64,000 bases of DNA. It comes from a virus (Duplodnaviria; Caudoviricetes). Position 1 is the first letter of the stretch. Each line of letters starts with the position of its first letter. Positions 164 to 55,133 of the stretch are shown piece by piece. The stretch spans positions 1,593-65,592 of IMG/VR virus record IMGVR_UViG_3300046557_000242; one strand, 5' to 3'. The translations under genes and the position numbers were made by a program. The notes beneath the pieces are model-generated. The model made no database searches. It was given only the letters and a program-made list of their open reading frames with translations, and had not been told where the DNA came from.

Positions 164-177
164 TTGCTTGAATGCAA
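164..177 (+). promoter_or_regulatory. TTGC-box (TTGCTTGAATGCAA)
   Basis: Exact consensus, intergenic, followed by an extra ATGCAA half-site. Confidence 0.8.
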
Positions 178-267
178 GTGATGCAAATACCCCCGTTCTG
201 ATCAGCGCGCCGCCCTCACGACGGGGGTGAAGTTTCGAACCCGGCACGCAACCCCAAAGGAGCACTT

Positions 268-1200
268 ATGGATCCCACCGCAAACGACCCGTTCCGCTAC
301 CGCGACGTGGCCGACCAGCTGACGCAGCAGGAGCAGCCCGCTCCCGCCGTGTTCGCCCAGGCCCCGATCGCAGCCACCGAGCAGCTCAGCCAGGCTGTCG
401 TCACCGAAACGTCGGTGATCGAGGTTCCGGCCGCGGCTCCCGAAGCGCCGCTCGTCGGCGAGATCATCCCGCCGGCACCCGAGACGCCGCCCAGCATCCC
501 GCTGTACCCGATCGGTCTGATCGACTTCAACCAGCCGATCGTCGTCGTCGACAGCGGCGAATACGCTGACGACCTGGAGCCCTACGACAGCGTCCAGATC
601 GTCACGACCCTGAAGGGCAGCTTGCACCCGATCGCGATCAGCTTCTGGAAGGACGGCGAGCAGTGTCTCGCGCAGTTCGACACGGACGGCGCATCGGTCT
701 GCGGCGACTTCAAGGTCGAGCAGGACCTGATCTATCCGGTCACCCGCTTCGTGGTCATCGGCCGCAAGGGTCGTAGCCTGGTCGTCGACGAGGAGCTGTA
801 CGCCTCCAAGGATGCGGCCATCGCCGAGACCGATCTCAACGACATCGCGGCGGTCCTGCCGGTCGTGATCGAGGCGCCGCAGGTCGCGGTTGAGGAGCCG
901 GCGCCGCTCGTGCCGGCCCCGCAACTGACCGAAGCGCTCGACAGCAACGGCAGCATCGAGGCGGAAGAGCATGACGACGAAGGCCCCGCGCCCGCTGTCG
1001 TCGACGCTCCGCCGACCGAGATGTACGTCGCCAGCCGGATGCGCCGCGTCGGCGAGACGGTCCACGCCTACCGCAACGGCTTCGGCACCCGCGCCTGCAC
1101 GGTCATCAAGCTGCGTCGCGACAGCCGCAAGTCGCTGCTGCTCGATCCGAAGGACGGCAACGAGCCGTACTGGGCGCTGAACAAGAACGTCCGCTACTGA
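268..1200 (+). CDS. Acidic Pro/Ala-rich hypothetical protein, possible C-terminal SH3/KOW-like barrel
   Basis: 310 aa ORF, AAGGAG RBS, strong codon bias. Confidence 0.75.
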   Translation: MDPTANDPFRYRDVADQLTQQEQPAPAVFAQAPIAATEQLSQAVVTETSVIEVPAAAPEAPLVGEIIPPAPETPPSIPLYPIGLIDFNQPIVVVDSGEYADDLEPYDSVQIVTTLKGSLHPIAISFWKDGEQCLAQFDTDGASVCGDFKVEQDLIYPVTRFVVIGRKGRSLVVDEELYASKDAAIAETDLNDIAAVLPVVIEAPQVAVEEPAPLVPAPQLTEALDSNGSIEAEEHDDEGPAPAVVDAPPTEMYVASRMRRVGETVHAYRNGFGTRACTVIKLRRDSRKSLLLDPKDGNEPYWALNKNVRY

Positions 1201-1212
1201 GCCTGCAACAAA

Positions 1213-1243
1213 GCGGCCCGTCTCCTTCCGGGGACGGGTTCGC
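1213..1243 (+). terminator. GC-rich hairpin after ORF 268-1200
   Basis: GCGGCCCGTC...GACGGGTTCGC stem; weak U-tail. Confidence 0.4.
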
Positions 1244-1249
1244 CCTCTC

Positions 1250-1486
1250 ATGGAGAAGATCATGCCGAGACGATTGGGTGACGATGCTCAGGTCAAGGAT
1301 GCCTTCCGCGCCTTCGAGGCATCGCGTCTCCTGATTAATCTGATCTGCGAAGCGCCCGGCCATGTGCCCAAGGAATTTCAACCGATCGTCGAGCTGGCGC
1401 TGCAAGCGTACGGCCTGCCTCACGACTTTCCGGAACGTGTTCTCGTCAACGAACTCAACGCAGACCAGGAGCAGCACCATGACTGA
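1250..1486 (+). CDS. Hypothetical protein
   Basis: Short ORF coupled to next gene; start may be 1262. Confidence 0.6.
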   Translation: MEKIMPRRLGDDAQVKDAFRAFEASRLLINLICEAPGHVPKEFQPIVELALQAYGLPHDFPERVLVNELNADQEQHHD

Positions 1487-1871
1487 ACCGAGATCGAAAG
1501 TCCGCATCGTCAGCGAAGCAGAGTTTGCCTCTGAGCTGCGCATTGCGCTGCAAGAGCACAACGTCGACAGCATCGGCGCAGTCACTGGCCCAGGCCGGTC
1601 CGGAGCAATCGCCGCGGTCTACACCTCGCACATGCTGCACATCCCGTTCATCCCTTTCGGGCAGCTTTGCCCCGAAAAGTTCCGGCTTCTGATCATCGAC
1701 ACCGCCCGGGAAAGCGGCCGGACGCTCCGCAAGGCGGCGCGCTGGTACCGCAAGGCGAACCCGATCGTGATCGCCGTCTACGAAGAGCCGCCGCGCGTGG
1801 CCTTCTGGTACGAGGCGCCGAAGCCGCAGTTCTACCGTCACGAAATCCCGAAACTGCAGGAGGCGGCATGA
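1479..1871 (+). CDS. Phosphoribosyltransferase-fold protein
   Basis: VTGPGRSGAIAA and LLIIDTARESGRTL resemble type I PRTase motifs. Confidence 0.6.
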   Translation: MTEPRSKVRIVSEAEFASELRIALQEHNVDSIGAVTGPGRSGAIAAVYTSHMLHIPFIPFGQLCPEKFRLLIIDTARESGRTLRKAARWYRKANPIVIAVYEEPPRVAFWYEAPKPQFYRHEIPKLQEAA

Positions 1872-2137
1872 CCGAACCAGTGTTCGATAACAACCAGTCC
1901 GCAGACGAGGGCTGGTGCATCTCCGAGTGCTTCGGCAGCGCGAATGGTCCGTGGCAGCTTCAGAAGTGCGACGAACAGGACGTCTTCAAGACCGACATCG
2001 AAGCGTGGAGGTTCGTCGTCGACTGCGCCGAAGCCGGCAGCGAATACCACAAGCAGGCACTCCAATTCCTGAAGGACCATAATCGGACAGAGCACGATTG
2101 CATCGTCGACACCATCAAACGGAGGGCGATCGCATGA
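1868..2137 (+). CDS. Hypothetical protein
   Basis: ATGA overlap with GGAGG RBS. Confidence 0.7.
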   Translation: MTEPVFDNNQSADEGWCISECFGSANGPWQLQKCDEQDVFKTDIEAWRFVVDCAEAGSEYHKQALQFLKDHNRTEHDCIVDTIKRRAIA

Positions 2138-2337
2138 TGATGCTGAGGCGCCGAAGGTGGCGGCACCCCTGCGATAAGGGGTCGCCGGCACAGCGCAAGC
2201 TGGGGGCTGCGTTCCGCTTCCTGATGGAAAACAGCACATGGAAGCGACATCCGAAGCCATTCGCGAAGACACAGCGCGGCCGGGCTCGCAGGAGCGAGCG
2301 CCGGTTCGTCGACGAGAACAAGCGAGCATTTGCGTGA
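2134..2337 (+). CDS. Small basic hypothetical protein
   Basis: ATGA overlap, GGAGG RBS, Arg-rich. Confidence 0.5.
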   Translation: MMMLRRRRWRHPCDKGSPAQRKLGAAFRFLMENSTWKRHPKPFAKTQRGRARRSERRFVDENKRAFA

Positions 2338-2876
2338 GCAGATTTTCCAACACCTGGTCCGATGCAGAAGATCAGGTCATTCGCGACAACAGACGGCTGC
2401 CGGCGAAGGAAATCGCCGAGCTGCTGCCAGGTCGTTCCGTCAGAGCAATCGCGACGCGGAGTCGCCGAATTGGCGTCTTCAAGGTGTGGGATCGCAATGA
2501 GAAGACGATCCTGTTCGACAACTCGAACATGACAGCGAGGCAACTTCAGCGCCTACTGCCTGGCCGCTCAATCAAGAGCATCCAAACCCAACGGAGTGCG
2601 ATGGGATTGAAACCCGTCTTTCGAAAGCCGGAGAAGTCGAAGCGCAAGCTCAAGCGCACTGGCAATCCGGTGATCGATGCCGTCATCGAACGGTGCGAGG
2701 AAGACAGGATCGGGTTGAAGACGCTCGATCGAGAAATCGGTGGCCGATACTTCCAGCATTCCCCCACTGATCCGAAGGGGTTGGAGTGGATTGCTAAGGC
2801 CGTCGCCTTCTTCGGCGGCAAAGGTCTGCTGATCGACGAGAACGCCAACATCACTATCGACTGGCACGACGAATAA
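2334..2876 (+). CDS. Putative DNA-binding protein with two Myb/SANT-like repeats
   Basis: WSDAEDQVIR..EIAELLPGRS..AI..R and WDRNE..LLPGRS..SI..QR repeats; GTGA overlap. Confidence 0.6.
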   Translation: MSRFSNTWSDAEDQVIRDNRRLPAKEIAELLPGRSVRAIATRSRRIGVFKVWDRNEKTILFDNSNMTARQLQRLLPGRSIKSIQTQRSAMGLKPVFRKPEKSKRKLKRTGNPVIDAVIERCEEDRIGLKTLDREIGGRYFQHSPTDPKGLEWIAKAVAFFGGKGLLIDENANITIDWHDE

Positions 2877-2888
2877 ATAGGAGCGGAA

Positions 2889-3080
2889 ATGTCAGAGATA
2901 TCCGAGGAACAAGCCGGCAAGCCTGTGCTCTGCGCCAGGCTGAACGGCAACACGCTCCGGGCGAAGTGGCCCGGCAAACGCTGGCATGGCCAATACAAGA
3001 ACATCGACGCGGTCTGCGACGCAGCTCACGAAGATGGCCTTGCAACATTCATCATCGACTACGTGGACAAGGAGGATTGA
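2889..3080 (+). CDS. Hypothetical protein
   Basis: 63 aa ORF with AGGAG RBS. Confidence 0.6.
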   Translation: MSEISEEQAGKPVLCARLNGNTLRAKWPGKRWHGQYKNIDAVCDAAHEDGLATFIIDYVDKED

Positions 3081-3316
3081 ACCAGGAGAGCCGGCCAACG
3101 CGGTGAGCCGGCGACTACATCTGAACTCGAACTGAAAGCCTCACATTGCAAAGACCTCTGACTATCGGGCGGGTAGATAAGAGTACAAAAACAGGCGTCA
3201 AAAATGATCGTTCTCAAATGCGGCGAGGCCGTCATCTGGCTTCGTCTTTTTAATTCGAGGGATAGACCTGCAGCACATTCCCCGTTTTGGGGCTGACTTT
3301 TCACTTGCTCTTTTGC

Positions 3317-3330
3317 TTGCTTGAATGCAA
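3317..3330 (+). promoter_or_regulatory. TTGC-box
   Basis: TTGCTTGAATGCAA in an AT-rich intergenic region. Confidence 0.8.
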
Positions 3331-3403
3331 ACAGAGCTAGTCGCGGTTCGCGGGACCAATTCGGGTTCCAAGGACCACATCACGGATAGCCATGCCTGCC
3401 GGC

Positions 3404-3417
3404 ATGCTTGAATGCAA
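3404..3417 (+). promoter_or_regulatory. TTGC-box variant
   Basis: ATGCTTGAATGCAA just upstream of GGAG RBS. Confidence 0.75.
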
Positions 3418-4878
3418 ACGGAGCAAACGATGTTCTACCTTGTCAGGTTGGACCGCGACGCCGACAGCAACCTCGTCGAGACGCCGCTGCCCGACTACGG
3501 CACCTTCGATAAGGGCGCCGACGCAGCCAAGGCCTCGAAGGCCGCCGCTGCACAGACTGGCGCCAAGGTTCAGTGCCGGCGCATCGCTCAGGCCGGAGAC
3601 TGGCGAGCCGCCATACAGAAGCGGCTCGAGTCCGGAGAATTGACCCGGCTTCCCAGCAAGTGGGACCTGGAGCCGATCGCCGATCACTTCGCCCATCTGT
3701 GGGCCAACGATCCCAGCAAGATCGCTTACATCGAGAGCGAAGACCACGGGATCATCCAGAAGCTGACGGCGACGACGCCGGGCCGCTACATCACCGCCTA
3801 TTACGAAGGCGGAGTCCAGGGCAGCACGGACATCACCGACGCCAAGCGTCGCACGCTGATCGCTGCGATCGACCCCAGCGGCGAGGTCTACTACGCCAGG
3901 ACGCCGGAGGAGATCGAGTACGTCTACAAGAATGGTCCCGACTCCTGCATGGACGGAGACCACCAGTTCAAAGGTCTGCCGATGTGGCCGACCGGGCCCT
4001 ATGGCGCTGGCGATCTGGCTGTCGCCTACACCAAGAACAGCCGGGGTCGTATCCAGTCGCGAGCCCTGTGCTGGCCTGAGAAGAAGGTTCACGGCCGATG
4101 CTATGGCGCCGTCGAGTCGATGCGAGCCACCTTGGCCGCGGAAGGCTTCACCGATCTGCGCGAAGGCACAGGCGGCAAGGTCAAACCGTTCATCGGCGCT
4201 CGTCTGCTCAAGGTCCCGCATGGCGACGCTTTCGTCATGCCCTACTTCGACGACATCAACGTCGCAGTTGATAGGGGCGACCACTTCGTCACGGTCGAGA
4301 ACCGCCAGGACACTGATCACTACGTGACCAGCTCATCGAGCGGCCTGTCTTACATCCAGGCCCTATGCCCCAAGGCGAAGGTCGTCGTGCAGGTCCGCGA
4401 GATGCGGTACGTGCATGGCGCTGACGAACTTTGGTCCTCGTCTGCGATCCAGCGCCTCGCCTTCACCTGTGATGGCAGCGGGAAGATCTGGCCCAAGACC
4501 GACACCGTCATCCTCGGCGATGGTCAGCGCTGGTCGCAGGAATACTTCGACGAGCACGGCGGCACCTGCTCCGTGAACGGGCAGCACTGGCCCAAGTCCG
4601 AGCTGATCGAGAAGAAGCCCGGCAAGTGGGTCCATCGCCTCAACGCTGACTACGAAGAGGTCGACCTGGAGCCGAAGGAGTCGCCGAAGAAGAAGCCGCG
4701 CAGCCGGTCGAAGAAGATCGTCGGCATCGACCCGGCTTCGGGGCCCGATCACACAGCCATCACGACCCTTCGCGGCAACACCGCGGACGGCTTCATCGTC
4801 GACGAGGTCCAGCTGCTCGATCCGAACCAGCCGACCGTGACCGACCTACTCCTCAATCGCCGCCGCCGGGCTGCCTAA
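3412..4878 (+). CDS. Conserved phage protein (DSCM...DLAVAY...RAL-W...YG core); true start probably 3430
   Basis: 488 aa ORF; degenerate Cys repeats in C-terminal half; ends in AA. Confidence 0.75.
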   Translation: MQTEQTMFYLVRLDRDADSNLVETPLPDYGTFDKGADAAKASKAAAAQTGAKVQCRRIAQAGDWRAAIQKRLESGELTRLPSKWDLEPIADHFAHLWANDPSKIAYIESEDHGIIQKLTATTPGRYITAYYEGGVQGSTDITDAKRRTLIAAIDPSGEVYYARTPEEIEYVYKNGPDSCMDGDHQFKGLPMWPTGPYGAGDLAVAYTKNSRGRIQSRALCWPEKKVHGRCYGAVESMRATLAAEGFTDLREGTGGKVKPFIGARLLKVPHGDAFVMPYFDDINVAVDRGDHFVTVENRQDTDHYVTSSSSGLSYIQALCPKAKVVVQVREMRYVHGADELWSSSAIQRLAFTCDGSGKIWPKTDTVILGDGQRWSQEYFDEHGGTCSVNGQHWPKSELIEKKPGKWVHRLNADYEEVDLEPKESPKKKPRSRSKKIVGIDPASGPDHTAITTLRGNTADGFIVDEVQLLDPNQPTVTDLLLNRRRRAA

Positions 4879-4887
4879 GGGATACCA

Positions 4888-10983: not shown

Positions 10984-11019
10984 TGGCCGGGTGGCTCATG
11001 CTGCCCGGCCATTTGTTTG
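10984..11019 (+). terminator. Intrinsic terminator overlapping a TTGC-box variant (11013-11026)
   Basis: TGGCCGGGTGGC/GCTGCCCGGCCA stem then TTTGTTTG. Confidence 0.7.
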
Positions 11020-11039
11020 TCTGCAAATCAGGAACATCA

Positions 11040-11369
11040 ATGCCACCCGCCCCTTTCCTAACCGCGTTCGAACGAAGGTTCGGACCTGCTCTACAGACCT
11101 TCTTCGAGGGCTGTCAGCGCATCAACTACGAGCACATGCAGAAGAACTATCCCAGTCTGACCAAGCCGGTCTTCAAGCTCGAAGAACTGAAGGTCCGCTG
11201 GCGCATCCGCCGCGACGGCAGTGTTCACGCCTTCGTCGACAAGAACACTGGAGACGTCCTGATGCCGGCGAGCTGGTCCAAGCCGGCCAAGCATGCTCGG
11301 GGAAACATCTTCGACGAGCACAACGGCCTCGCCAACATGGGCATATACGGCCCAGCCTATTTGAGGTGA
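11040..11369 (+). CDS. Conserved phage hypothetical protein
   Basis: HAFVDKNTGDV..PASW.KPAKHARGNI motif typical of phage ORFs. Confidence 0.75.
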   Translation: MPPAPFLTAFERRFGPALQTFFEGCQRINYEHMQKNYPSLTKPVFKLEELKVRWRIRRDGSVHAFVDKNTGDVLMPASWSKPAKHARGNIFDEHNGLANMGIYGPAYLR

Positions 11370-11626: not shown

Positions 11627-12052
11627 ATGAAGATGAAGAAGACGCTTACTAAGCTGCAGGAGCGCATCGTCGCTCGCGTGATCTCCGACCCTATGAACAC
11701 GCTGTACCTGTCGAAAGGCTACGTCAACTCGGCGAAGAGCCTGATCGACAAGGGACTGATCGATCGTCACTGCTACGGCTCAATGATCCAGTCCCAGTAC
11801 CTCACCCCCGAGATCAAGACGGTCTTCTTCGGCGAGAACGACGAGGTGTTCGCGATCCAGGACATCTACGACAATTGCTGGCTGATCTTCGAGAACCGCG
11901 AGCTGGTCGCCAAGCCGCGTTGCGAGGAGAAAGCGCACCGCATCGTCAAGGCACTGAAGGTGCTGCGCCAGCAGGAGATGCCTGGACTGGTCGCCAGCCT
12001 GGCACCGGAGCAGCAGCAGGAAGCGTTCAACAACGAGGCCGTCGACATCTAA
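11627..12052 (+). CDS. Hypothetical protein
   Basis: 141 aa, GAGGAGG RBS. Confidence 0.7.
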   Translation: MKMKKTLTKLQERIVARVISDPMNTLYLSKGYVNSAKSLIDKGLIDRHCYGSMIQSQYLTPEIKTVFFGENDEVFAIQDIYDNCWLIFENRELVAKPRCEEKAHRIVKALKVLRQQEMPGLVASLAPEQQQEAFNNEAVDI

Positions 12053-12076
12053 TTTGCATTTTCTGCAACTTTCTGT

Positions 12077-12090
12077 TTGCTTGAATGCAA
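12077..12090 (+). promoter_or_regulatory. TTGC-box
   Basis: Exact consensus; related TTGCATTTTCTGCAA just upstream. Confidence 0.8.
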
Positions 12091-13720: not shown

Positions 13721-14088
13721 GGCTGAACTATCCGCACGGCAAGCCGCCAGAGGGTGTCGACGCTCTCTGGCGGTGCGAAGCCCAGAGCTATTCCTACGTG
13801 ATCGATGCCGATCGCGAGGAGTACGGGGTCACCGATCCACGCCTCGAAATGAGGTGGTATCCCGTCGACCGCAGGACGCCGAAGGGTGCCTGGGTGTGCG
13901 GTGAGTTTCAATTACTCACCGCGTTCAAGAAGAAGTTCTCGGAGTCCGAAGAGGGCGCGATCCGAGATTTCAAGGCCCGCAAAAACAAGCAGATCAAAAT
14001 CCTATCCAGGCAACTGGGCAGGGCTGAACAGGAGCTGGCGCTCACCGCGCCTAATCTCTTCGATTTGCGTGTCCCGAGAGTTGCATGA
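13717..14088 (+). CDS. Hypothetical protein
   Basis: TTGA overlap with helicase stop; RRTPKGAWV motif. Confidence 0.6.
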   Translation: MRLNYPHGKPPEGVDALWRCEAQSYSYVIDADREEYGVTDPRLEMRWYPVDRRTPKGAWVCGEFQLLTAFKKKFSESEEGAIRDFKARKNKQIKILSRQLGRAEQELALTAPNLFDLRVPRVA

Positions 14089-14094
14089 ATGCAA
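14081..14094 (+). promoter_or_regulatory. TTGC-box
   Basis: TTGCATGAATGCAA directly before AAGGAG RBS. Confidence 0.8.
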
Positions 14095-16477: not shown

Positions 16478-16747
16478 ATGGCGCTCAGTTCAAAGAAGTT
16501 CCTCAAAGGAGAGGAAGTCAAAGCGTTTCGTATTTCACGCAACCTCACCCAGGCGGATCTGGCTGATTGGCTTGACCTAACCACCCAGGCAATCGGGAAG
16601 TACGAGGCCAACGGTGCCACCAAGACGACGGCGCTGGCGCTGGCGGCTATCGACCGCGGTCTGCGGCCCTTCAAGCCGACCAAGGCTGACCTCCATCTGG
16701 CGGCCAGCCGAGGACGCATGAAAGCACTGCGTAAGAAGGAGATCTGA
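16478..16747 (+). CDS. XRE-family HTH regulator
   Basis: FRISRNLTQADLADWLDLTTQAIGKYEANG. Confidence 0.85.
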   Translation: MALSSKKFLKGEEVKAFRISRNLTQADLADWLDLTTQAIGKYEANGATKTTALALAAIDRGLRPFKPTKADLHLAASRGRMKALRKKEI

Positions 16748-17130: not shown

Positions 17131-17155
17131 GGGCCGCCGATGGCGACCCTCTTTT
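17129..17155. terminator. Hairpin between convergent genes
   Basis: GAGGGCCGCC-GAT-GGCGACCCTC-TTTT. Confidence 0.6.
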
Positions 17156-17876
17156 AGATCCGCATGGTCATCGCAACGATAGCGATCTCCTTGATGTCGT
17201 CGAACTGAATTACTTCGTCCTCCTTCTCCGGGAGAGACTTCGACAGCTTCAGACCGTTCTCCGTGATGTCCAGCAGCAAGCGGACGCGAGTCTTCTCGCT
17301 CTTGTCGGTGAGCACCACGAGGTCACCGGGGACGGGATCGCGCCGCTTCGTGGCGTACATCAGGACGCCGGTTTTGAACCACATCCCGAGCGAGCTGTCT
17401 GGCATGTGAAAAGCGAACGCAGTCTCGTCACCCTCCAGCTGAGGCGGTGCCGGCACGTAGCCGTCACGGCGTGGTCCCGCAGCAGCAGACTGCAAGGCAG
17501 CCGGCAACGACGACACATGGCGCAGCTCCACGGTAGCCTGCCGAGCCGGCCGCAGGTTGACGCGACGGACATTCTCGGGCTCTCCGCCCTCGAAGTTGGC
17601 GGTACCGCCATCCCCCGCAGCTCCCAGCGCTTCCATGACCTTCTTCGGGATAGGGTAGCCCGATCCGGAGGCGATCTTCTGGAGCGTCGAGACAGTCGGG
17701 ACGAAGGGGTGCTTGGGGTTGTTGAGCAGACGCAGGATTGTGGACGGGGCCAGCTCGGCAGAGCGAGCGAGGTCGGTTCCCGTCCATTTCTTCCGGTCCA
17801 GAATGTGGTCGATCCACTCGATCACGATCTCTTTGGTGGTCTGTGCTTTTTTCATTTCAGTCGCTGACAATGCCAT
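17154..17876 (-). CDS. CI-like repressor (XRE HTH + S24-like C-terminal domain)
   Basis: WTGTDLARSAELAPSTILRL HTH; FAFHMPDSSL...PVPGDLVV. Confidence 0.75.
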   Translation of the reverse strand: MALSATEMKKAQTTKEIVIEWIDHILDRKKWTGTDLARSAELAPSTILRLLNNPKHPFVPTVSTLQKIASGSGYPIPKKVMEALGAAGDGGTANFEGGEPENVRRVNLRPARQATVELRHVSSLPAALQSAAAGPRRDGYVPAPPQLEGDETAFAFHMPDSSLGMWFKTGVLMYATKRRDPVPGDLVVLTDKSEKTRVRLLLDITENGLKLSKSLPEKEDEVIQFDDIKEIAIVAMTMRI

Positions 17877-18154
17877 TTGCGATCTTCCATTACCACGGTT
17901 CGCATAAAAAGTTCTTAGTGATCCCGAGCGGAATCGCGCTGTGTGCAATACTGGACATTCAATTGGTTCTAAAAAAGGTAGGGTCGTTTGCAGTCATCGA
18001 AGCCTCGTCCATCCCGTTTGCGTGGATGCTAACGAAGCCGAATACGATAGGTTTCTCGGGATTGCAAATGTTTTTTTGTTCCCTCTGCGTTCTCATTCGG
18101 AGAGGAAGCGTAATGATTTCAATAGCTTATATTGGGTAGACCGAACGCGGGTTA

Positions 18155-18825: not shown

Positions 18826-18839
18826 TTGCATTCGTGCAA
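18826..18839 (-). promoter_or_regulatory. TTGC-box in divergent ruvC/rep intergenic region
   Basis: Reverse complement TTGCACGAATGCAA plus a second GAATGCAA. Confidence 0.75.
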
Positions 18840-18890
18840 ATACACCAACCCCGCGACGGTGTCAAACCGGCGGGCAACTAACGGAACATC

Positions 18891-21439: not shown

Positions 21440-21453
21440 TTGCATGAATGCAA
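21440..21453 (+). promoter_or_regulatory. TTGC-box
   Basis: TTGCATGAATGCAA upstream of ssb. Confidence 0.8.
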
Positions 21454-21488: not shown

Positions 21489-22169
21489 ATGGCATCAAGT
21501 TTGAACAAGGTCGAGCTGATCGGCCGCCTCGGCAAGGACCCCGAGGTGAAGAACCTCTCGAACGGTTCTTCCGTCGCGAATTTCAGCGTCGCCACCAGCG
21601 AGAGCTGGAAGGACAAGCGCTCTGGCGAGAAGGTCGAGAAGACCGAGTGGCACAATATCGTGGTCTGGAACGAGAACACGATCAAGTTCGTCCAGGACTA
21701 CGTCAAGAAGGGCGATCTGGTCCGCATCGAGGGCAAGATCCAGACCCGTTCCTGGGAAGATAACGATGGCAACAAGAAGTATGCCACCGAGATCGTGATC
21801 CCGGCCTTCGCTTCGATCGACGCGCTGATGAAACTGTCGTTCGACAACGACAACAACGATCGTGGCGGCGACCGTGGCGGCAGCGACCGCGGCTCCAGCC
21901 GTGGTGGCAACTCCCGCAGCAGCGGCAACAGCCGTGACCGCGACGACCGCGGTGGCAACGATGACCGTGGCAGCAACAGCCGCTCGTCGTCGAGCCGTGG
22001 CAACTCCCGCGATGACGACCGTGGCGGCGATGACCGTGGCGCAAGCCGTGGTGGCAGCCGTGGCCGTGACGACCGCGATGACCGCGGCGGCAATGACCGT
22101 GGCAACAGCCGCGGCGGCAACAGCGGCGGCGGTCGCAACAACGATATGAACGACGATATCCCGTTTTGA
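21489..22169 (+). CDS. ssb: Single-stranded DNA-binding protein with long RGG/DDR-rich linker
   Basis: [28 protein letters not shown]-terminus. Confidence 0.95.
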
Positions 22170-22298: not shown

Positions 22299-22312
22299 TT
22301 GCACGATTGCAA
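22299..22312 (+). promoter_or_regulatory. TTGC-box variant
   Basis: TTGCACGATTGCAA before GGAG RBS. Confidence 0.65.
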
Positions 22313-25139: not shown

Positions 25140-25153
25140 TTGTTTGAATGCAA
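25140..25153 (+). promoter_or_regulatory. TTGC-box variant
   Basis: TTGTTTGAATGCAA. Confidence 0.75.
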
Positions 25154-27395: not shown

Positions 27396-27908
27396 ATGAG
27401 CAAGAGCAACAAGTCCAAAGACAAGTGGATGCTGTTCAGAAAGAAATTCCTGGACGGCATCGGAGCAGTTCTGGTTCCGCACGCCGGATACGACATCGAG
27501 CTGTTTGAACGGTTTCCTGAGGATGTCCCGCTCCGCATTCAGCTCGCCCAACCCCGAAGCGGGCCGCGACATCGCCTCTATAGGGTGTCGCTGCGGATCA
27601 TCGTGAACAACACTGACAAGTTCACAACCGATGACGCCCTCCACAAGACGTTGCTGCTTGCCTGCAACGTGACGGAGCCCATCCTCACCACCGAGGGCGA
27701 GTTCATCTACGTCCCCTCCTCCACGGCGTTCGATGCCATGCCGGAAGAGGAGTTCAAGATCTACTTCGACCGGGCGATGGGAATCGTCGCGTCGGTCATC
27801 ATCCCCGGGCTCGATCTCGACGAGCTGCTGAAGGAGGCCCGGGCCCAGTCCAACTACAAGGACGCCGCCAACGACAACGACGAGCGTTCCAGCCAAGAGG
27901 TTGCGTAA
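27396..27908 (+). CDS. DUF1367-like phage protein
   Basis: PRSGPRHRLY...PSSTAFDAM.EEEF..YF. Confidence 0.65.
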   Translation: MSKSNKSKDKWMLFRKKFLDGIGAVLVPHAGYDIELFERFPEDVPLRIQLAQPRSGPRHRLYRVSLRIIVNNTDKFTTDDALHKTLLLACNVTEPILTTEGEFIYVPSSTAFDAMPEEEFKIYFDRAMGIVASVIIPGLDLDELLKEARAQSNYKDAANDNDERSSQEVA

Positions 27909-29913: not shown

Positions 29914-29929
29914 ACATTTGCTTGACCTT

Positions 29930-29943
29930 TTGCTTGAATGCAA
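29930..29943 (+). promoter_or_regulatory. TTGC-box
   Basis: Exact consensus plus downstream ATGCAA. Confidence 0.8.
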
Positions 29944-29950
29944 ATAGGAA

Positions 29951-30635: not shown

Positions 30636-30649
30636 TTGCTTGAATGCAA
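30636..30649 (+). promoter_or_regulatory. TTGC-box
   Basis: Exact consensus before AAGGAG. Confidence 0.8.
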
Positions 30650-35829: not shown

Positions 35830-35843
35830 GTGCTTGAATGCAA
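35830..35843 (+). promoter_or_regulatory. TTGC-box variant
   Basis: GTGCTTGAATGCAA plus downstream TGCAA. Confidence 0.75.
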
Positions 35844-36383: not shown

Positions 36384-36397
36384 TTGTTTGAATGCAA
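36384..36397 (+). promoter_or_regulatory. TTGC-box variant
   Basis: TTGTTTGAATGCAA. Confidence 0.75.
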
Positions 36398-42855: not shown

Positions 42856-43205
42856 ACGACAACGATTTGATCGGCCGGATCGCCGGTATAGCGATAACCC
42901 AGTTCAACGGGGTGGGGTTCGCTCACGGGGTATACTTCAAGGTCACCTCAGTTGAAGGGCCTGGGCAACTGCATGTGGTCTGCACCAATCCAGGAATGAG
43001 CAAACTGACCCGCACCATGCCGGCGGAGCAGCTTTGGAGGCAGCTCAGCCCCGAAACCGTTCAGGGACAACTCGAACCGCTCCATGACGAGAAGCTGGAC
43101 TATGCGGCGAAGTGCTATCTCACGGAGCGGCAGGACGGGGAGAACGACGAACAGCTCAAGGCGAGGCTGACAGCCATCGGACTCGGTCCGAAGGGCATGA
43201 ACTGA
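42852..43205 (+). CDS. Hypothetical protein
   Basis: GTGA overlap. Confidence 0.55.
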   Translation: MNDNDLIGRIAGIAITQFNGVGFAHGVYFKVTSVEGPGQLHVVCTNPGMSKLTRTMPAEQLWRQLSPETVQGQLEPLHDEKLDYAAKCYLTERQDGENDEQLKARLTAIGLGPKGMN

Positions 43206-45320: not shown

Positions 45321-45334
45321 TTGCTCTAATGCAA
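45321..45334 (+). promoter_or_regulatory. TTGC-box variant in divergent intergenic region
   Basis: TTGCTCTAATGCAA plus GAATGCAA; further TTGC..GCAA at 45175-45190. Confidence 0.65.
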
Positions 45335-47052: not shown

Positions 47053-47237
47053 TGAAGATCTGGAAGCGCTTGAAGCGCAAGGACATGTGCCCGGTGAAGC
47101 GAAGAGCAATCGAGTTCCTGGAGCGAGACGACGTAGCTGCCGTGGAGATCAGCGAAGCTCGCGGCGCCGGCAATATCACCATGGTGCAGATCAGGGCTGT
47201 CAAAGGCCGGGCTTTCCGTGCCCAGTGGCTTGCTTGA
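47052..47237 (+). CDS. Hypothetical protein
   Basis: TGATG coupling. Confidence 0.5.
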   Translation: MKIWKRLKRKDMCPVKRRAIEFLERDDVAAVEISEARGAGNITMVQIRAVKGRAFRAQWLA

Positions 47238-47243
47238 ATGCAA
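47230..47243 (+). promoter_or_regulatory. TTGC-box
   Basis: Exact consensus spanning the stop/start junction. Confidence 0.8.
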
Positions 47244-48948: not shown

Positions 48949-48949
48949 G

Positions 48950-50357: not shown

Positions 50358-50358
50358 C

Positions 50359-50733: not shown

Positions 50734-50888
50734 AGTGGCTCTGCTGGATCATCGGACACTGGAATGTCTACGGGCCGTGGAGACGCGGTCAGCGCCACTG
50801 GCTGCGGGCGAACGCCTGCTGTCGCTGCGGGGAGCTGGACCACTGGCAAGTCTCCCGCACCAACTTCAAACCGTTGGATGTGTCATGA
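50730..50888 (+). CDS. Small Zn-ribbon protein
   Basis: LCWIIGHW...CCRCG; ATGA overlaps at both ends. Confidence 0.55.
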   Translation: MKWLCWIIGHWNVYGPWRRGQRHWLRANACCRCGELDHWQVSRTNFKPLDVS

Positions 50889-51414: not shown

Positions 51415-51590
51415 AGGGTCTTGACCAGCTCTCGCACGTCGACCTGGGGCCGGTTGCTTCTGACCGGCCCTGTGGGCTTCAGCTCTCCGGTCGCGCGCTG
51501 GACGAAGATCTTGCCGATCTCGGCCCAGATTTGCTCCGGGGTGATCACCTCAGCGTCACCCCGTGTCAGCTTCATGTTAATGAGGCGCAT
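51411..51590 (-). CDS. Hypothetical protein (59 aa)
   Basis: GGAGAGGA RBS; stop overlaps the convergent gene's stop. Confidence 0.5.
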   Translation of the reverse strand: MRLINMKLTRGDAEVITPEQIWAEIGKIFVQRATGELKPTGPVRSNRPQVDVRELVKTL

Positions 51591-51865
51591 TTCCTCTCCA
51601 GTTCCTTATCCAATGCGTGGATCTGACGCCACATGTCCTCGATCCTCTTGAGGAGGATCTCCTTGGTGAGCTGCTCCGGCGGCTTCTCCGGCGTCGGGTC
51701 CGGCAGCGCGTATGCGCAGTCGGCGCAGATGACCGCCCGCTTGTCCCCGATGAACGTCTTGTCCTCCAGGTCCTTGCAGCCGGCGCCGTGACAGTGGTTC
51801 AGATAGCTCCCCGGCGCCCAGCCGAAGCGCTGGGGCCGCCTGTCTTCCTTCCAGGCCAGTGACAT
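51572..51865 (-). CDS. Zn-ribbon hypothetical protein
   Basis: APG.Y...C...C..FIGDKRA..CADCA. Confidence 0.65.
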   Translation of the reverse strand: MSLAWKEDRRPQRFGWAPGSYLNHCHGAGCKDLEDKTFIGDKRAVICADCAYALPDPTPEKPPEQLTKEILLKRIEDMWRQIHALDKELERKCASLT

Positions 51866-52545
51866 CAGCGTGCGAACCCGGTCGCCAGCGCCAGCCCTGC
51901 GGCTGCTGCAATGGCCTTCCGCGAGTTGGCGAAGCTGGTCAGCTGCGTCCTCTTGAAATGCTCGGCCATGGCCTTGTCCAGATCGGCGTAGAGCGTCTCC
52001 AGATCGCCGTCGTTGTGGATGACGAAGTCCGGCTTGATCAGGTCGATGCGCTCACTCGGATGCACTCCCCACATGATGCCGAACTTGTCGAACAGGAACT
52101 CGCCGAGCTTGTTCTTGAACTTCGCCGGGCGGGTGCCGGGGCGCTTGATCATGATGACCACGCCGCCGAGACCGCGGATCGCCGCTGACTCGTTCGGGAA
52201 GCGGACGGAGTCGTTCATTACGGACTCTCCATCTTTCACGCCGGCAGCCCAGGTGTTGGACCACAGGTCCTCGCCGATCAGCTGGCGTCCCCACTCGGTG
52301 CCCAGCGTGATCTGCGCGTAGCGCGAGGTGACGCCGAGGCACGGCACGACGGTCTCCTTGAGATCGCCCTCCAGGTAGCGGGTGATCTCGGCCGACTCCA
52401 TGCCGTTGGCCTGCATCAGCACCGCGAGCATGGCCCGCAGCGGCTCGGCGATGTGCTTGCGGCGCACGCCGTACTTCTTCTCCAGGTACAGAGCCGCCGT
52501 CGTCTTGCCCGACTGCGCGAAACCCGAGAGACCGATAACCGTCAT
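51865..52545 (-). CDS. Deoxynucleoside monophosphate kinase
   Basis: GLSGFAQSGKTT, LGTEWGR, VRFPNE, HPSE, I.NDG. Confidence 0.88.
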   Translation of the reverse strand: MTVIGLSGFAQSGKTTAALYLEKKYGVRRKHIAEPLRAMLAVLMQANGMESAEITRYLEGDLKETVVPCLGVTSRYAQITLGTEWGRQLIGEDLWSNTWAAGVKDGESVMNDSVRFPNESAAIRGLGGVVIMIKRPGTRPAKFKNKLGEFLFDKFGIMWGVHPSERIDLIKPDFVIHNDGDLETLYADLDKAMAEHFKRTQLTSFANSRKAIAAAAGLALATGFAR

Positions 52546-52560
52546 TTGCAATTCCTTCCT

Positions 52561-52574
52561 TTGCATTCAAACAA
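52561..52574 (-). promoter_or_regulatory. TTGC-box variant
   Basis: Reverse complement TTGTTTGAATGCAA. Confidence 0.75.
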
Positions 52575-52578
52575 GCGT

Positions 52579-53043
52579 TCAGGCAGCGAGCAGCTGCCGC
52601 GTCAGATCGATGGCGTCCCACAGCGTGGTGACGCGGTAGCCGATGATGTGGTTGACCATCGCGTGCTCGTGCGGATTCGAGCCGTCATCTTCCATGGCCA
52701 CCACGATCGGGATGCCCTGAGAATCGGCCCAGGCCAGCTCAAGCACGGTGCCGATCGAGACCTTCGTGGCGCCCAGCAGGTTGACCAGCAGCACGTCGCA
52801 GCGCATCGCGTCCCAGCGGTCCCGGACCGTGAGGCCCTTTGGCGTTGACATCGGCGACTTCAGCCGCTCGGTCTCCTTTGCGGCGTCGGTGAACACACCG
52901 ATCGCCTTCATGTGCTCCTGCTCGCGCAGGGGGGAGAGCCCCTTGATCCCGAACTGCGAGAGTTCCGCTTTCGCGTACTCCCGCCAGTCGGTGGCGCCTT
53001 CGAAGTTCAGACCTGAGATCGGGCCGGCGAGATAGACGAGCAT
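52579..53043 (-). CDS. Nucleoside 2-deoxyribosyltransferase-family protein
   Basis: VYLAGPI, WR, RD...CD, SIGTVLELAWA. Confidence 0.85.
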   Translation of the reverse strand: MLVYLAGPISGLNFEGATDWREYAKAELSQFGIKGLSPLREQEHMKAIGVFTDAAKETERLKSPMSTPKGLTVRDRWDAMRCDVLLVNLLGATKVSIGTVLELAWADSQGIPIVVAMEDDGSNPHEHAMVNHIIGYRVTTLWDAIDLTRQLLAA

Positions 53044-53057
53044 TGAAGCCTCCTTAT

Positions 53058-53071
53058 TTGCATTCATGCAA
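53058..53071 (-). promoter_or_regulatory. TTGC-box
   Basis: Reverse complement TTGCATGAATGCAA. Confidence 0.8.
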
Positions 53072-53075
53072 GCGA

Positions 53076-55037
53076 TCAGGCAGCCAAAGACCGTGCGGGC
53101 ACCCGCACGACCCGGCGTCCCGGACGCCACTTGCCCTTCTGCATCGTGAGCAGCGAGCGCTTCCCGTCCGGATACTGAATGGTCACGGTGACCGCCCAGC
53201 CCGACAGGCCCTTGTTGTAGCCGTGGCGCAGGTTCATGACGCCGGAGACGTACACGCCCTCCATGATCTCGGGGCTGTGTTTGTCACCGATCGACATCTT
53301 GCGGCCGGCCTTGGCGAAGCCGTTCACGGTGCCACGAGCGCCGTTCGCGCCGCGGAAGCCGTGGTTGCCGACCTCGATGCCGTCGATCAGGTAGCTGTAT
53401 CCATCGACGCACCACTCCACCAAGCCACCCAGCTCGGGCCGCTTGAGGCGCACGGCGTGCTCCAGCAACGAGAACCGCGGCAGCGGCATGTCGTTGTCCA
53501 GCGCGTAGGAACGCTGCTCGACGTAGTTGAGGTAGGCATCCTCCAGCTTGAGTCCGTAGCGGACGTTCGTGCCGTCCATACGGTACCTGCCCTCGCGAGC
53601 GTACTTCTCCAGCGCCAGATCGTGGTTGCCCTCGGCTATGATCGCCTTGCGGTTCTCACGAGCCAGCAGCGACAGGAAGTCACCCACGCCCTCGACCTCG
53701 TTCTCCACGCTGTCACGGCCACGAATGGCCATCTCGTAGCTGTGGGCGTTGTCGTGGATGTGGTGGTGGTTCCTCGCCTCGTTGTCGAAGATGTCGTGCA
53801 GGATGATGTTCTCGGGATCGAGAACGTCCACCAAGCTGTTGCGGAGCTGCGCCTTTCCGCCACGCATGTCCCATCCGAAGATGGCCATGCAGTTGGTCTG
53901 GTCGATCTTGCGGACGTGGATGTCCGGCATGGTGACAGCCTTGACGCGATGGCCGACCGTGACCTCGGCGTTCGCCACGTAGGCGTCGAGGTCGTAGAAC
54001 GAGCCGTCGTCGTCGTTCGCCGTGATCTGCCGGCAGAAGATGTCGCCATCCTCGTCGAACTGAACCACGGTGGCGCCGATGATCTGGTGGAAGATCGACT
54101 TCACGCCCGCCTTGCGGGGGATGATCTTCGGTCGCGTGCAGGCGCCCGACGTCATGACCTGGTGGGCCTGGATCGTCGGATCGGTGGACGGGACGGACTT
54201 CAGCTGGCGCTTGGCGTGCGGAAACACGGCCCAGCGGCCCCGGCTGTACGTCACCAGGTCGGAGATCGGCTGCGACGCGGTCGGCAGCGTGTTCATCTCG
54301 CCGCAGAACACGAAGTTGTCGCCGATCTTCATCTGGCCAAAGCACAGGTGCTCAGCCAGCTCGGGGGCGTACTCGCGCGCCTGCGGGTCGTTCTCGGACC
54401 ACCACTGCGTCTCGTAGGTCCAGGGGCCGACGATGATCTCGGCGTCGATGTAGGCTGCATAGGCCTGCAGATTGACCCAGAACTCCTCATGGAGGAGAGC
54501 GTCATTCTGCGCGCCCGTGAAGATGAAGTTCCGGTTGCGGGAGTCCTTGATGGCGTCGACCTTCAGGGTGTCGACCATCCAGGTCCGCGGCCGGCCTTCC
54601 TTCTCCACGTAGCGACGGTGCTTCTGCGACCAGGTACGCAGCATCGGCGTGTCGACGATGACGGCATCCGGGTTGATGACGGGGTATTTCGATCGGGTGA
54701 TGAGTTCGGTAACCTCGGCCGAGAGCGTCTTCGCCCGGATCAGCGGGTCGACTTCTTCGGCGGACAGTTCTTCGCCACCTGAGGTGACGGTAGCCTTGGG
54801 CTCAGGCGGAACGTACAGCGACCAGTCGATCGCGAAGTTCTCTTTGCGCTTGCGCTTCAGCGCCTCTTCAGCGCGAACCCAGTTCGGATAGTTCAGTCCT
54901 TCGACGCGCTCCGCGGTTTTGGTCGCGGAGGCAATGCCTCCACGCGAGCCCTGCGGGTGATAGCCCTGCTTCAGCAGATCTTCGATGACCTGCTTTCTGC
55001 GAGCGCGTTCTTCGGTAGCGAGCGGTTGAAAAGTCAT
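53076..55037 (-). CDS. Large calcineurin-like metallophosphoesterase-domain protein
   Basis: PDIH, LHD.FD, GNHD, HG, HSP motifs; N-terminal T.AQN. Confidence 0.8.
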   Translation of the reverse strand: MTFQPLATEERARRKQVIEDLLKQGYHPQGSRGGIASATKTAERVEGLNYPNWVRAEEALKRKRKENFAIDWSLYVPPEPKATVTSGGEELSAEEVDPLIRAKTLSAEVTELITRSKYPVINPDAVIVDTPMLRTWSQKHRRYVEKEGRPRTWMVDTLKVDAIKDSRNRNFIFTGAQNDALLHEEFWVNLQAYAAYIDAEIIVGPWTYETQWWSENDPQAREYAPELAEHLCFGQMKIGDNFVFCGEMNTLPTASQPISDLVTYSRGRWAVFPHAKRQLKSVPSTDPTIQAHQVMTSGACTRPKIIPRKAGVKSIFHQIIGATVVQFDEDGDIFCRQITANDDDGSFYDLDAYVANAEVTVGHRVKAVTMPDIHVRKIDQTNCMAIFGWDMRGGKAQLRNSLVDVLDPENIILHDIFDNEARNHHHIHDNAHSYEMAIRGRDSVENEVEGVGDFLSLLARENRKAIIAEGNHDLALEKYAREGRYRMDGTNVRYGLKLEDAYLNYVEQRSYALDNDMPLPRFSLLEHAVRLKRPELGGLVEWCVDGYSYLIDGIEVGNHGFRGANGARGTVNGFAKAGRKMSIGDKHSPEIMEGVYVSGVMNLRHGYNKGLSGWAVTVTIQYPDGKRSLLTMQKGKWRPGRRVVRVPARSLAA

Positions 55038-55119
55038 TTTGCCCTGTGGTTGGTTGGGAACCCGGAACCACGAGGGAGTGCCTACCCCCGAGATTTCGGC
55101 CTCGGGGATAGCACAGAAT

Positions 55120-55133
55120 TTGCATTCGTGCAA
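55120..55133 (-). promoter_or_regulatory. TTGC-box
   Basis: Reverse complement TTGCACGAATGCAA. Confidence 0.75.

Follow-up and report, generated by a model that had tools for sequence, protein, structure and literature searches.

Transcription-oriented, near-palindromic boxes at gene junctions of a temperate myophage family related to Bradyrhizobium phage BDU-MI-1: a candidate operator network

To our knowledge, genome-wide networks of transcription-oriented operators have so far been worked out only for the Cluster A mycobacteriophages. For these temperate phages (L5, Bxb1, and TipsytheTRex), more than 20 copies of one short site are described at promoters and in short intergenic spaces, and the orientation of the copies is strikingly correlated with the direction of transcription; the L5-type site is a 13-mer that lacks symmetry altogether, and the repressor reads it as a monomer by means of two DNA-binding domains (PMC9283540). 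T1-like coliphages (T1, TLS, and Stevie) carry 16 to 21 copies of repeats of 21 to 22 nucleotides (nt), mainly intergenic and oriented with transcription; these phages have no RNA polymerase or sigma factor gene, and the repeats have been suggested to be stoperators, enhancer sites, or UP elements (PMC4319613, PMC11447400); their function was still listed as an open question in 2024 (PMC11447400). Here we examine a 14-bp box of the form TTGC-N6-GCAA that recurs ahead of genes in a stretch of phage DNA of 64,000 nt (the window, to which all coordinates without a prefix refer) out of the 65,592 nt of the IMG/VR virus record IMGVR_UViG_3300046557_000242 (G+C content, 61%).

In its layout, the system resembles that of Cluster A: there are 21 sites in the 65.6-kb record and 18 to 26 in each relative, located at junctions and promoters and co-oriented with transcription. 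It differs in the site, a near-palindrome of 16 to 20 bp with one polar central base, in the candidate binder, a CI/LexA-like protein that is predicted to be dimeric, and in the phage, a 120-kb myovirus of an alphaproteobacterial host with most of its late region devoid of sites. The analogy to the stoperators of L5 and Bxb1 that was drawn in a preliminary description of this DNA thus holds for the layout but not for the protein, as the L5 protein is a monomer on an asymmetric site. The consensus of the T1-like repeats, in our reading, contains an inverted repeat, TAGCA...TGCTA. The T1-like phages differ in being virulent and in having their repeats about 76 nt upstream of start codons, versus a mode of 11 to 16 nt here; the repeat sequences are unrelated to the box, and no CI-like candidate is known there.

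Synteny links the record to Bradyrhizobium phage BDU-MI-1 (circular, 121 kb; recorded host, B. diazoefficiens USDA110) and to IMG/VR records of 114 to 128 kb, four of which are classed as proviruses; many IMG/VR proviruses of 100 to 128 kb gave matches as well. One of the relatives, G003, gives 90% coverage and 81% identity against the record, and the others give 43 to 75% coverage at about 73% identity. From this synteny, the record represents about half of a 120-kb temperate myophage of the BDU-MI-1 family, and the window covers the half that is concerned with replication and nucleotide metabolism.

Distribution, symmetry, and placement of the box

The preliminary description had reported about 19 copies, and all of its coordinates hold a box. 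The 14-mer TTGCWTGAATGCAA is present in nine exact copies, against 0.00 expected from 100 shuffles, and with up to 2 mismatches there are 21 strand-hits (expected, 0.50; shuffle maximum, 3), which amount to 18 distinct loci, three of the sites being palindromic enough to be counted once per strand. The site at 11013 has 3 mismatches to the consensus, and its orthologue in the relatives is a good box (G003 56393). A weight matrix of 20 columns was built from 122 family sites in six genomes and run over the whole 65,592-nt record at a threshold of at least 8 bits; it recovered the 19 sites, one copy on the - strand 380 nt before the start of the window, and two weak sites, at 18018 and 17988 (9.3 bits), upstream of a CI-like gene, while five shuffled genomes gave 0 to 2 hits each. 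A 3-mismatch match inside a gene at 27654 scores below 8 bits and looks like a chance occurrence. The motif scan of relatives that the preliminary description had called for led to the same picture: at up to 1 mismatch, 18, 20, 26, 23, and 18 boxes were found in five relatives and 23 in BDU-MI-1, and the reversed pattern used as a control had no copy in any of the six.

The boxes are retained at orthologous junctions across the relatives although the flanks diverge, which indicates selection on the site itself. Besides the Shine-Dalgarno (SD) sequence, the box is the sole strongly enriched intergenic 8-mer family, and a search at the 8-mer level for another intergenic motif in excess, a late promoter for instance, gave none. 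The matrix scan gave no box of at least 8 bits in the lysis and tail part of the window (55,134 to 64,000), in agreement with the earlier remark that this region lacks a full copy. In the relatives, two boxes are found in the head module, ahead of the scaffold and capsid genes, and these are the only boxes of the late region.

The box is a phage-specific motif and not the regulon of the sampled bacterial genomes. In 401 bacterial genomes, sampled from the order of a Methylobacterium hit (an order that also contains Bradyrhizobium) and not as a dedicated scan of Bradyrhizobium hosts, there were 25 exact matches in 21 genomes, and the reversed control gave 1. This corresponds to about one exact match per tens of Mb, versus one per 7 kb in the record, so that the recurrence in host DNA that the preliminary description had named as an argument against a phage system was not seen in this sample. 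Five of the 25 matches are copies of one repeated element: at positions 800614, 862924, 1246908, 3793488, and 3960002 of G058:C11 (L288 to L292), TTGCATGAATGCAA stands within flanks that are identical over at least 180 nt, and this repeat is an element such as an insertion sequence in which the motif is incidental. A 15-mer scan of 596 Gb of contigs yielded, among the matches listed, scattered single copies, as expected by chance. A description of the motif was not found among the papers listed in a text search of the literature for the 14-mers and for the 9-mer TGAATGCAA, a search that excluded supplements and subscription journals. The papers listed have no relation to phages, the 14-mer appears in one of them, on yeast, and BDU-MI-1 is mentioned only in an unrelated metagenome paper.

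The alignment of the 122 sites, with the first T of TTGC numbered +1, shows a conserved stretch from about -17 to +17, where conservation ceases. The core is a near-perfect palindrome, TTTGCWTG-AATGCAAA (written by halves, from T at -1 to +15), in which seven of the eight mirrored pairs of the 16-mer agree; the flanks are mirrored as well (Y at -3 with R at +17, and R at -2 with Y at +16), so that the symmetry spans about 20 bp (YRY...RYR). The half-site is TGCAAA, and the gene-proximal half is the better conserved of the two. A is found at +15 in 105/122 sites and a purine at +17 in 103/122. Two positions break the symmetry: +7, where G stands in 117/122 sites and a perfect palindrome would have T, and +5, where T is preferred to A. 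The box had been regarded earlier as mainly asymmetric, with a GAAT core; this view has to be replaced by that of a near-perfect palindrome of 16 to 20 bp with a single central G, at +7, that carries the polarity.

Additional half-sites accompany the boxes. There are 26 copies of TGCAAA at +17 to +40 of the 122 sites, about 28-fold over the half-site background of 0.32 per kb, in line with the extra downstream half-site noted previously, and TTTGCA, in mirrored orientation, occurs 19 times at -60 to -3 (about 8- to 10-fold). At the helicase site (12077), a second palindrome, TTTGCA-N5-TGCAAA, lies about 21.5 bp from the box, center to center, or about two helical turns upstream. A further element, T-G-(not G)-C-Y (TGYCY), occupies -11 to -7, with G at -9 in only 1/122 sites. 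It is retained within each genome taken separately and is therefore not an artifact of orthology, and a mirrored counterpart downstream is faint.

We found no base-pair covariation between the half-sites among the family sites of the six genomes. Of the 37 sites with C at -1, 34 retain A at +15, a T/T mismatch is found at +5/+10 in 72 of 116 unique sites, and changes at +11 are uncompensated. Together with the mirrored upstream half-sites, this favors a protein dimer on duplex DNA over a hairpin.

The placement of the boxes is equally regular. Genes are on the + strand up to about 51.4 kb and on the - strand beyond, and all 19 window boxes lie upstream of a start codon on the same strand and are co-oriented with the downstream gene; in the six genomes this applies to at least 108 of 120 boxes by crude gene calls, and most of the exceptions are start or strand mis-calls. 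An SD sequence precedes the downstream start at 17 of the 19 window sites and, by the criterion used, at neither 47230 nor 55120. Starts were placed at the SD-bearing codon (at 47230 and 55120, by the starts of relatives or a long open frame), and with starts so placed all 19 sites are outside coding sequence. The earlier statements that the sites occupy gaps and junctions, often just ahead of a ribosome-binding site, and that they flip with the genes are therefore borne out.

The stop codon of the upstream gene is at -7 (25140, 52561, and 53058), at -11 (21440), or further away. In the family, 28 of the 122 sites have it at -7, at -11, or inside the box: it stands at -7, right after the TGYCY element, in 14 sites, and the frame ends at the TGA of the box itself in 8. 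An SD-supported start was found within 200 nt of 91 sites, 32 of which have it 11 to 16 nt past the box and 9 closer, with the rest at up to 200 nt. At the tight sites with 11 to 16 nt, stop codon, box, SD sequence, and start codon make up the intergenic gap. The box never overlaps the SD sequence and is separated from it by 0 to about 100 nt. A terminator-like hairpin lies ahead of 42 of the 122 boxes versus 50 of 360 random positions, and the 36 nt upstream of the boxes are modestly more structured than shuffled sequences (mean, -8.2 versus -6.9 kcal/mol).

Promoters near the boxes and candidate binding proteins

Stringent sigma-70-like promoters (TTG and at least 5/6 matches in the -35 element, a spacer of 16 to 18 nt, and A at position 2 of the -10 element) overlap 19 of the 122 boxes, versus 51 of 2,000 random windows. 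Seventeen promoter hits near boxes represent four orthologous groups and three registers: the end of the -10 element is at -2 for the scaffold and capsid genes of the relatives, at +1 or +3 for the A1-like and RuvC-like genes (window sites 55120 and 18826), and at +21, with the box filling the spacer, at window site 29930; three further hits end at +17, +51, and +54. Three registers suggest an operator, since one fixed promoter element would keep one register. In the head module of the relatives, a TTGACA-N17/18 promoter precedes the scaffold and capsid genes with a box at the start site, and the capsid gene has a second box ahead of it. To go by their flanks, the boxes at 12077 and 21440 may lie over -35 elements. 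The box was also considered as an ordinary sigma-70 -35/-10, sigma-32, extracytoplasmic function (ECF), or MotA-type element for the adjacent gene, and this was rejected because at SD-adjacent sites the start site would fall inside or after the SD sequence.

In five relatives that are 94 to 100% complete, no match over the cutoff was obtained for sigma-70 region 2 or region 4 (PF04542 and PF08281), for the sigma-54 DNA-binding domain (PF04552), or for a NusG/RfaH-like factor; divergent small sigma-like factors could escape the sigma profiles. A search for T7-type RNA polymerase (PF00940) gave no match, but its control was silent too, and the search is hence uninformative. No protein of the size of an RNA polymerase is common to all relatives, and Pfam searches with ten further G003 proteins revealed no regulator. 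The idea of a phage polymerase, raised by D-x-D-G-D motifs in proteins of 685 and 310 amino acids (aa), led nowhere.

Three proteins had been put forward as the possible regulator. The first of them, the CI/LexA-like protein, fits best: its gene (17154 to 17948, -; probable start near 17876) is present in 13/13 orthologous loci, with an overall identity of 59 to 80% and a recognition helix, APSTILRLLN, that is invariant in 12 of the 13 (G002 has one L-to-M change); residues A43 to R49 and N52 of the helix are invariant in an 11-row alignment. A 42% identical CI homologue with the helix APSTILRIMN, the only distant case encountered, is found in L315 among boxes that keep both half-sites but have an altered center, TTGCARGAATGCAA. 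The only Pfam match of the CI-like protein is to HTH_26, below the cutoff (E value, 3.7e-4), and comparison with PDB sequences gave no match. In an AlphaFold2 model (mean pLDDT, 60.6), a disordered linker joins a helical N-terminal domain to a C-terminal domain rich in beta structure; in Foldseek, the best full-length match is the lambda repressor (3bdn_A; E value, 4.7e-3, with no match at or below 1e-3), and for the C-terminal domain alone the matches are UmuD, LexA, and its counterpart in lambda CI, with weak E values. A symmetric homodimer of the C-terminal domain was predicted with a score of 0.70, versus 0.14 for the best control; this score was reached by 20 of 30 proteins solved as one-chain pairs and by 1 of 23 single-chain proteins, and the dimer runs share at least 95% of contacts, with a partner pLDDT of at least 89. 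The dimer prediction may reflect likeness, because the dimers of lambda CI, LexA, and UmuD are solved. With regard to the Ser/Lys dyad of RecA-stimulated self-cleavage, inspection of the alignment by eye shows a D-S-S motif, and the counterpart of the cleavage lysine is ambiguous.

Degenerate boxes and half-sites are present in the 206-nt gap ahead of the CI-like gene. The degenerate copy that had been noticed there, TTGCGTGGATGCTA (18018 to 18031, +), scores 14.3 bits; one TTTGCA and one TGCAAA half-site and the 9.3-bit site at 17988 are nearby, and three relatives also have degenerate boxes at the equivalent position.

The other two proposed regulators fit less well. A gene of the XRE type with a helix-turn-helix (HTH) motif (16478 to 16747) adjoins the CI-like gene; it was found in 12/13 loci and not in G004. 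The Myb-repeat protein (2238 to 2876) is a real gene product that is only 27 to 54% identical among relatives. Since the relatives all come from one family, the candidates cannot be told apart by the co-occurrence of the boxes with the CI-like gene.

A box variant with T at +11 (GAATTCAA, giving the palindrome TTGAATTCAA) accounts for 4/20 boxes of G002, 3/9 of L276, and 5/11 of L312, and at up to 1 mismatch it is absent from G000, G001, G003, G004, G005, and BDU-MI-1. Covariation of the CI helix with this variant was considered; it is suggestive in G002 and L312 and is broken by L276, which combines the consensus helix with variant boxes.

Operator network and alternative readings

We consider that the boxes constitute an operator network for a dimeric phage regulator, of which the CI/LexA-like protein is the likeliest candidate, and we give this reading roughly an even chance. 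A dimer of the phage-encoded HTH regulator would bind the two-fold symmetric box on double-stranded DNA. At the minority of sites that lie on a sigma-70-type promoter (on the -10 element or start at 18826 and 55120 and in the spacer at 29930), binding would block initiation; this would also account for the two head-module boxes of the relatives, which are located on and just after a near-consensus promoter that would otherwise fire in the lysogen. At the majority of sites, in tight junctions or 5' leaders just before the SD sequence, the bound protein would act as a polar, stoperator-like block to elongating RNA polymerase, and these junction blocks would keep the 120-kb prophage silent. We infer the identity of the binder, its repressive effect, and the roadblock at junctions from sequence features. 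Since one protein reading more than 20 sites would have its specificity frozen, the box and the recognition helix would remain nearly unchanged across the family. The preliminary description had one phage regulator in control of most early and middle units; its phage-specific network at the DNA level, covering most early and replication units, stands, and that a single protein binds throughout is presumed.

The reading as an operator network has parallels in phage lambda. Like lambda CI, the CI-like protein appears, from its model and with weak E values, to have an N-terminal HTH domain, a linker, a beta-rich C-terminal domain, and a predicted C-terminal dimer. The operators are alike in being two-fold symmetric over 16 to 20 bp with a better and a poorer half, in overlapping, in some cases, a -35 element, spacer, -10 element, or start, in having adjacent sites about two helical turns apart, and in the presence of weak sites upstream of the repressor gene. 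The systems differ in that more than 20 operators are dispersed here, in comparison with lambda's six in two clusters, and in that the sites are mostly junctions without a promoter, with strict polarity and the TGYCY element; sequence similarity to solved repressors is undetectable.

Several observations weigh against this reading. A symmetric dimer requires neither the strict polarity of the sites in the window and the family nor the near-invariant G at +7, and the TGYCY element is conserved although its mirrored counterpart is only faint. About 100 of the 122 sites have no recognizable promoter, and we know of no precedent for a roadblock by a CI-type dimer. More than 20 dispersed operators are unlike a lambda-type switch. 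Immunity operators usually diverge between phages, whereas the box is undiverged among phages that are only about 73% identical in DNA. As no other motif besides the SD sequence is strongly enriched, most promoters of this phage would be unaccounted for if the box is not one. The A at +15, the sharp minimum in the distance from box to start codon, and, in three genomes, an ATG that abuts the box suit a transcription start at the edge of the box. The Foldseek E values are weak, and the link between box and protein rests on sequence and model. The strict co-orientation, the central G, the TGYCY element, the lack of immunity-type divergence, and the lack of another candidate promoter motif are thus unexplained by an operator network.

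Many of these features would fit a phage-specific (middle-type) promoter, at which host RNA polymerase and a phage factor, possibly a dimeric activator, start transcription at about +15 or +16, the 3' edge of the box, to give mRNA leaders of about 10 to 100 nt, or none. Oriented intergenic motifs before phage genes are mostly promoters, and here the conservation reaches upstream to -17 and ends at +17, A at +15 and a purine at +17 are frequent, the SD sequence is never overlapped, and distances of less than 11 nt to the start codon are few. The methyltransferase ATG abuts the box without an SD sequence in G000, G003, and BDU-MI-1, terminator-like hairpins are more frequent ahead of boxes than at random positions, each arm of the divergent control region of BDU-MI-1 begins with a box and no canonical promoter was seen there, and the box is invariant across the family as the only enriched motif. 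A near-perfect palindrome with mirrored extra half-sites is, however, unexpected for an element read by polymerase, the box takes three registers relative to good sigma-70 promoters, no -10-like hexamer is correctly placed for a start at +15, and neither a sigma factor profile match nor a shared protein of polymerase size emerged from the relatives. The sigma-54 (-24/-12) consensus, TGGCAC-N5-TTGCW, is matched by the upstream T, G, and C and by the TTGCW of the box at exact spacing, and the predicted start at about +16 fits the SD limit; GC is present, but the essential second G of the GG is found in 1/122 boxes, TTGCW is followed by ten strongly conserved bases, which a sigma-54 promoter does not have, and the phages lack a DNA-binding-domain match. 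Activators of the FNR/CRP/FixK type recognize TTGA-N6-TCAA (the FixK2 variant allows C/G) and sit about 41.5 bp upstream of the start; the overall shape TTGC-N6-GCAA is similar, but there is no regulon in the sampled bacteria, and the -41.5 geometry is unworkable where the start codon is 11 to 16 nt past the box. We regard the promoter as rather unlikely on balance, the choice between it and the operator having been made by sequence logic. A more specific form, which we consider improbable as a joint proposal, is that a dimer bound to the palindrome, together with TGYCY, lets host RNA polymerase start at A(+15) without -35 and -10 hexamers, yielding mRNAs that would be leaderless or have a leader of SD length, and that the same protein would repress where the box overlaps sigma-70 promoters.

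Symmetry, half-sites, and phage specificity would fit equally a dimeric phage protein other than the prophage repressor, for example a Cro-like or lytic regulator such as the XRE-type protein, or an architectural or anti-silencing protein, which might serve timing or activation and not silencing. Cro and CI use the same operators in lambda-type switches, the XRE-type gene is the neighbor of the CI-like gene, and with relatives from a single family the co-occurrence of box and CI-like gene does not discriminate. Against such a protein, which we think improbable, stand the 23 boxes of G004, where the XRE-type gene was not found, the activation geometry, which fails at the 32 or more sites with a start codon 11 to 16 nt past the box, and the boxes on the -10 element or start of good promoters, which imply repression. 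The polarity with respect to the sense strand and the location in transcribed leaders right before the SD sequence also raise the possibility of an element in RNA, a hairpin UUUGCW-UGAA-UGCAAA in the 5' untranslated region that would have the role of translational operator, processing site, or antitermination-type signal. The most frequent change in the stem (C4 to T, 12/122) leaves a G-U pair, and an unrelated lineage has a different motif, CACTAGCAAA, in the same place before the SD sequence; but the stem is only 4 to 5 bp, pairs vary without covariation (the retained A at +15, the pair-breaking changes at G11, and the T/T mismatches), the mirrored upstream half-sites suit duplex DNA, the distance to the SD sequence varies from 0 to about 100 nt, and there is no match to a NusG-like gene, all of which makes a hairpin quite improbable. 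Finally, in T4-type phages, cassettes of promoters and stem-loops spread by and promote recombination between gene modules, and the box with its SD sequence could be a mobile regulatory cassette or boundary sequence of this kind, compatible with the other readings, the polarity being a by-product of the SD sequence that it carries. The boxes are at gene boundaries, often where relatives differ in gene content, and their polarity and attached flanks are otherwise unexplained, yet they are kept at orthologous junctions while the flanks diverge, and we consider this origin very improbable.

What is new here is a stoperator-like layout in a family of temperate myophages and prophages of about 120 kb, with a palindromic site and a candidate lambda-type dimer. 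If the boxes are repressor sites, polar silencing of a prophage by dispersed operators would have arisen independently with a different protein architecture, and there would be a simple account of a specificity frozen across the family. If they are promoters, the box would be the main promoter class of the group, with a mode of transcription start outside current promoter models. In either case, the box provides a map of transcription-unit boundaries for the annotation of these prophages.

Individual sites and neighboring features

The box at 164 to 177 (+; exact, 29.9 bits) has an upstream TGCC element and is followed by a 90-nt leader with a GC-rich hairpin and the gene at 268 to 1200. GC-rich hairpins without a T-run stand about 12 to 16 nt after the boxes at 164 and 55120, within long leaders: CCCCCGT...ACGGGGG at 190 to 235 (+) and CCCCGAGG...CTCGGGG at 55060 to 55105 (-), the latter conserved in G003 and G004. 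A tandem pair with a spacing of 87 nt, at 3317 to 3330 (+; exact, 32.2 bits) and 3404 to 3417 (+; 1 mismatch, 25.2 bits), occupies a 425-nt gap ahead of the gene at 3430 to 4878 (+), with the SD sequence acggag and ATG 3430 immediately after the second box. The degenerate box at 11013 to 11026 (+; 3 mismatches, 16.0 bits) comes just after a terminator-like hairpin and before a gene start at 11040, and its orthologue in the relatives is the perfect palindrome TTGCATGCATGCAA. Ahead of the UvrD-like helicase (start, 12134) is the exact box at 12077 to 12090 (+), with the extra palindrome TTTGCA-N5-TGCAA near 12050 to 12066, about 21 bp upstream. The exact box at 14081 to 14094 (+) is followed by an SD sequence and ATG 14109 of a phrog_2554 protein; the box is kept at this junction in 13/13 relatives checked, with up to 1 mismatch in 12 and in degenerate form (2 mismatches) in L274.

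The box at 18826 to 18839 (-; 1 mismatch), ahead of the RuvC-like gene, overlaps the -10 element of a sigma-70-like promoter, TTGACA-N17-TATTTG (18837 to 18865, -), whose -10 hexamer covers box positions -3 to +3 and which is kept in four relatives. Eleven nucleotides past the primase-helicase stop codon, the exact box at 21440 to 21453 (+) is followed by GCTAATGCAAA and by the start of the single-stranded DNA-binding protein (SSB) at 21489. The box at 22299 to 22312 (+; 2 mismatches, 22.0 bits) is 14 nt past a strong terminator-like hairpin, with an SD sequence and ATG 22324 next, and that at 25140 to 25153 (+; 1 mismatch) is in a 29-nt junction between the RNase T-like exonuclease stop (-7) and ATG 25165 of the YqaJ exonuclease. 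The exact box at 29930 to 29943 (+) fills the spacer of a sigma-70-like promoter, TTGACC-N17-TAGGAA (29922 to 29950, +), that is kept in five relatives; ATG 29957 is only 6 nt past the -10 hexamer, which may make the mRNA leaderless. An exact box at 30636 to 30649 (+), followed directly by an SD sequence and ATG 30665, stands at the head of the class II ribonucleotide reductase cluster. Boxes with downstream half-sites are at 35830 to 35843 (+; 1 mismatch; TGCAAA; gene start, 35868), 36384 to 36397 (+; 1 mismatch; TGCAAATGCA; ahead of the NMT1-like gene, ATG 36431), and 45321 to 45334 (+; 2 mismatches, 23.0 bits; ATGCAAA; gene start, 45373).

The exact box at 47230 to 47243 (+) is abutted, with no SD sequence, by ATG 47244 of the MT-A70 methyltransferase, the mRNA of which is a candidate leaderless mRNA. 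The same arrangement is seen in G003 (18335, -) and BDU-MI-1 (43144 to 43160), and the start is 9 to 10 nt further on in G001, G002, and G005. On the - strand, the box at 52561 to 52574 (1 mismatch) lies between the deoxyribosyltransferase stop (-7) and the start of the deoxynucleoside monophosphate (dNMP) kinase, and the exact box at 53058 to 53071 lies between the stop (-7) of the 685-aa A1-like gene and ATG 53043 of the deoxyribosyltransferase. The box at 55120 to 55133 (1 mismatch), ahead of the A1-like gene with its long, hairpin-bearing leader, is overlapped by TTGACC-N17-TAAATT (55161 to 55133, -), which ends at position +1 of the box.

Related noncoding features were noticed outside the window. 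A conserved stretch of about 90 nt (...cccggacccacaaaccccatgctg...ggcgacaggagttcggcgtgtcc) is located immediately 5' of the box heading one arm of the divergent early region (L150 48044 to 48160, i.e., BDU-MI-1 98044 to 98160; G003 about 86250 to 86342; G004 about 57630 to 57720), and no canonical promoter was recognized within it. Upstream of the BDU-MI-1 scaffold gene, just past a tRNA-Asn gene, there are three direct copies of GAACGTTT (L150 26275 to 26340, -), where other relatives have a TTGACA promoter and a box. In a distant lineage (L279, L280, L284, L285, and L286; 47 to 52% G+C) that shares the phrog_2554 gene at 40 to 50% identity, the nonpalindromic CACTAGCAAA directly precedes the SD sequence and start of this gene and several others on both strands (L279 9952 [+], 9325 [-], and 6327 [-]; L280 6521 [+], 7487 [+], and 5698 [-]); its placement is that of the box, and it likewise ends in GCAAA.

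The + strand genes of the window include those for an rIIA-like ATPase, the UvrD-like helicase, the primase-helicase, SSB, the RNase T-like and YqaJ exonucleases, the class II ribonucleotide reductase, a ThyX-like protein, an integrase, and the MT-A70 methylase. The - strand genes include those for the dNMP kinase, the deoxyribosyltransferase, the 685-aa A1-like protein, a muramidase, a P2 GpU-like protein, a tape measure protein, and a tail tube protein. The window showed no DNA polymerase gene, and the annotation of BDU-MI-1 names none. The 685-aa protein (53076 to 55133, -) matches phrog_1745, is annotated as "putative A1 protein" in BDU-MI-1, and has, by eye, metallophosphatase-like motifs (DIHV, GNHD, and GNHG) in its C-terminal half. 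G003 has a ParA/MinD-like ATPase gene at 100059 to 100970 (L141 59 to 970; weak match to the CbiA family), with integrases alongside in some members of the family, and the prophages may thus be maintained in more than one way.

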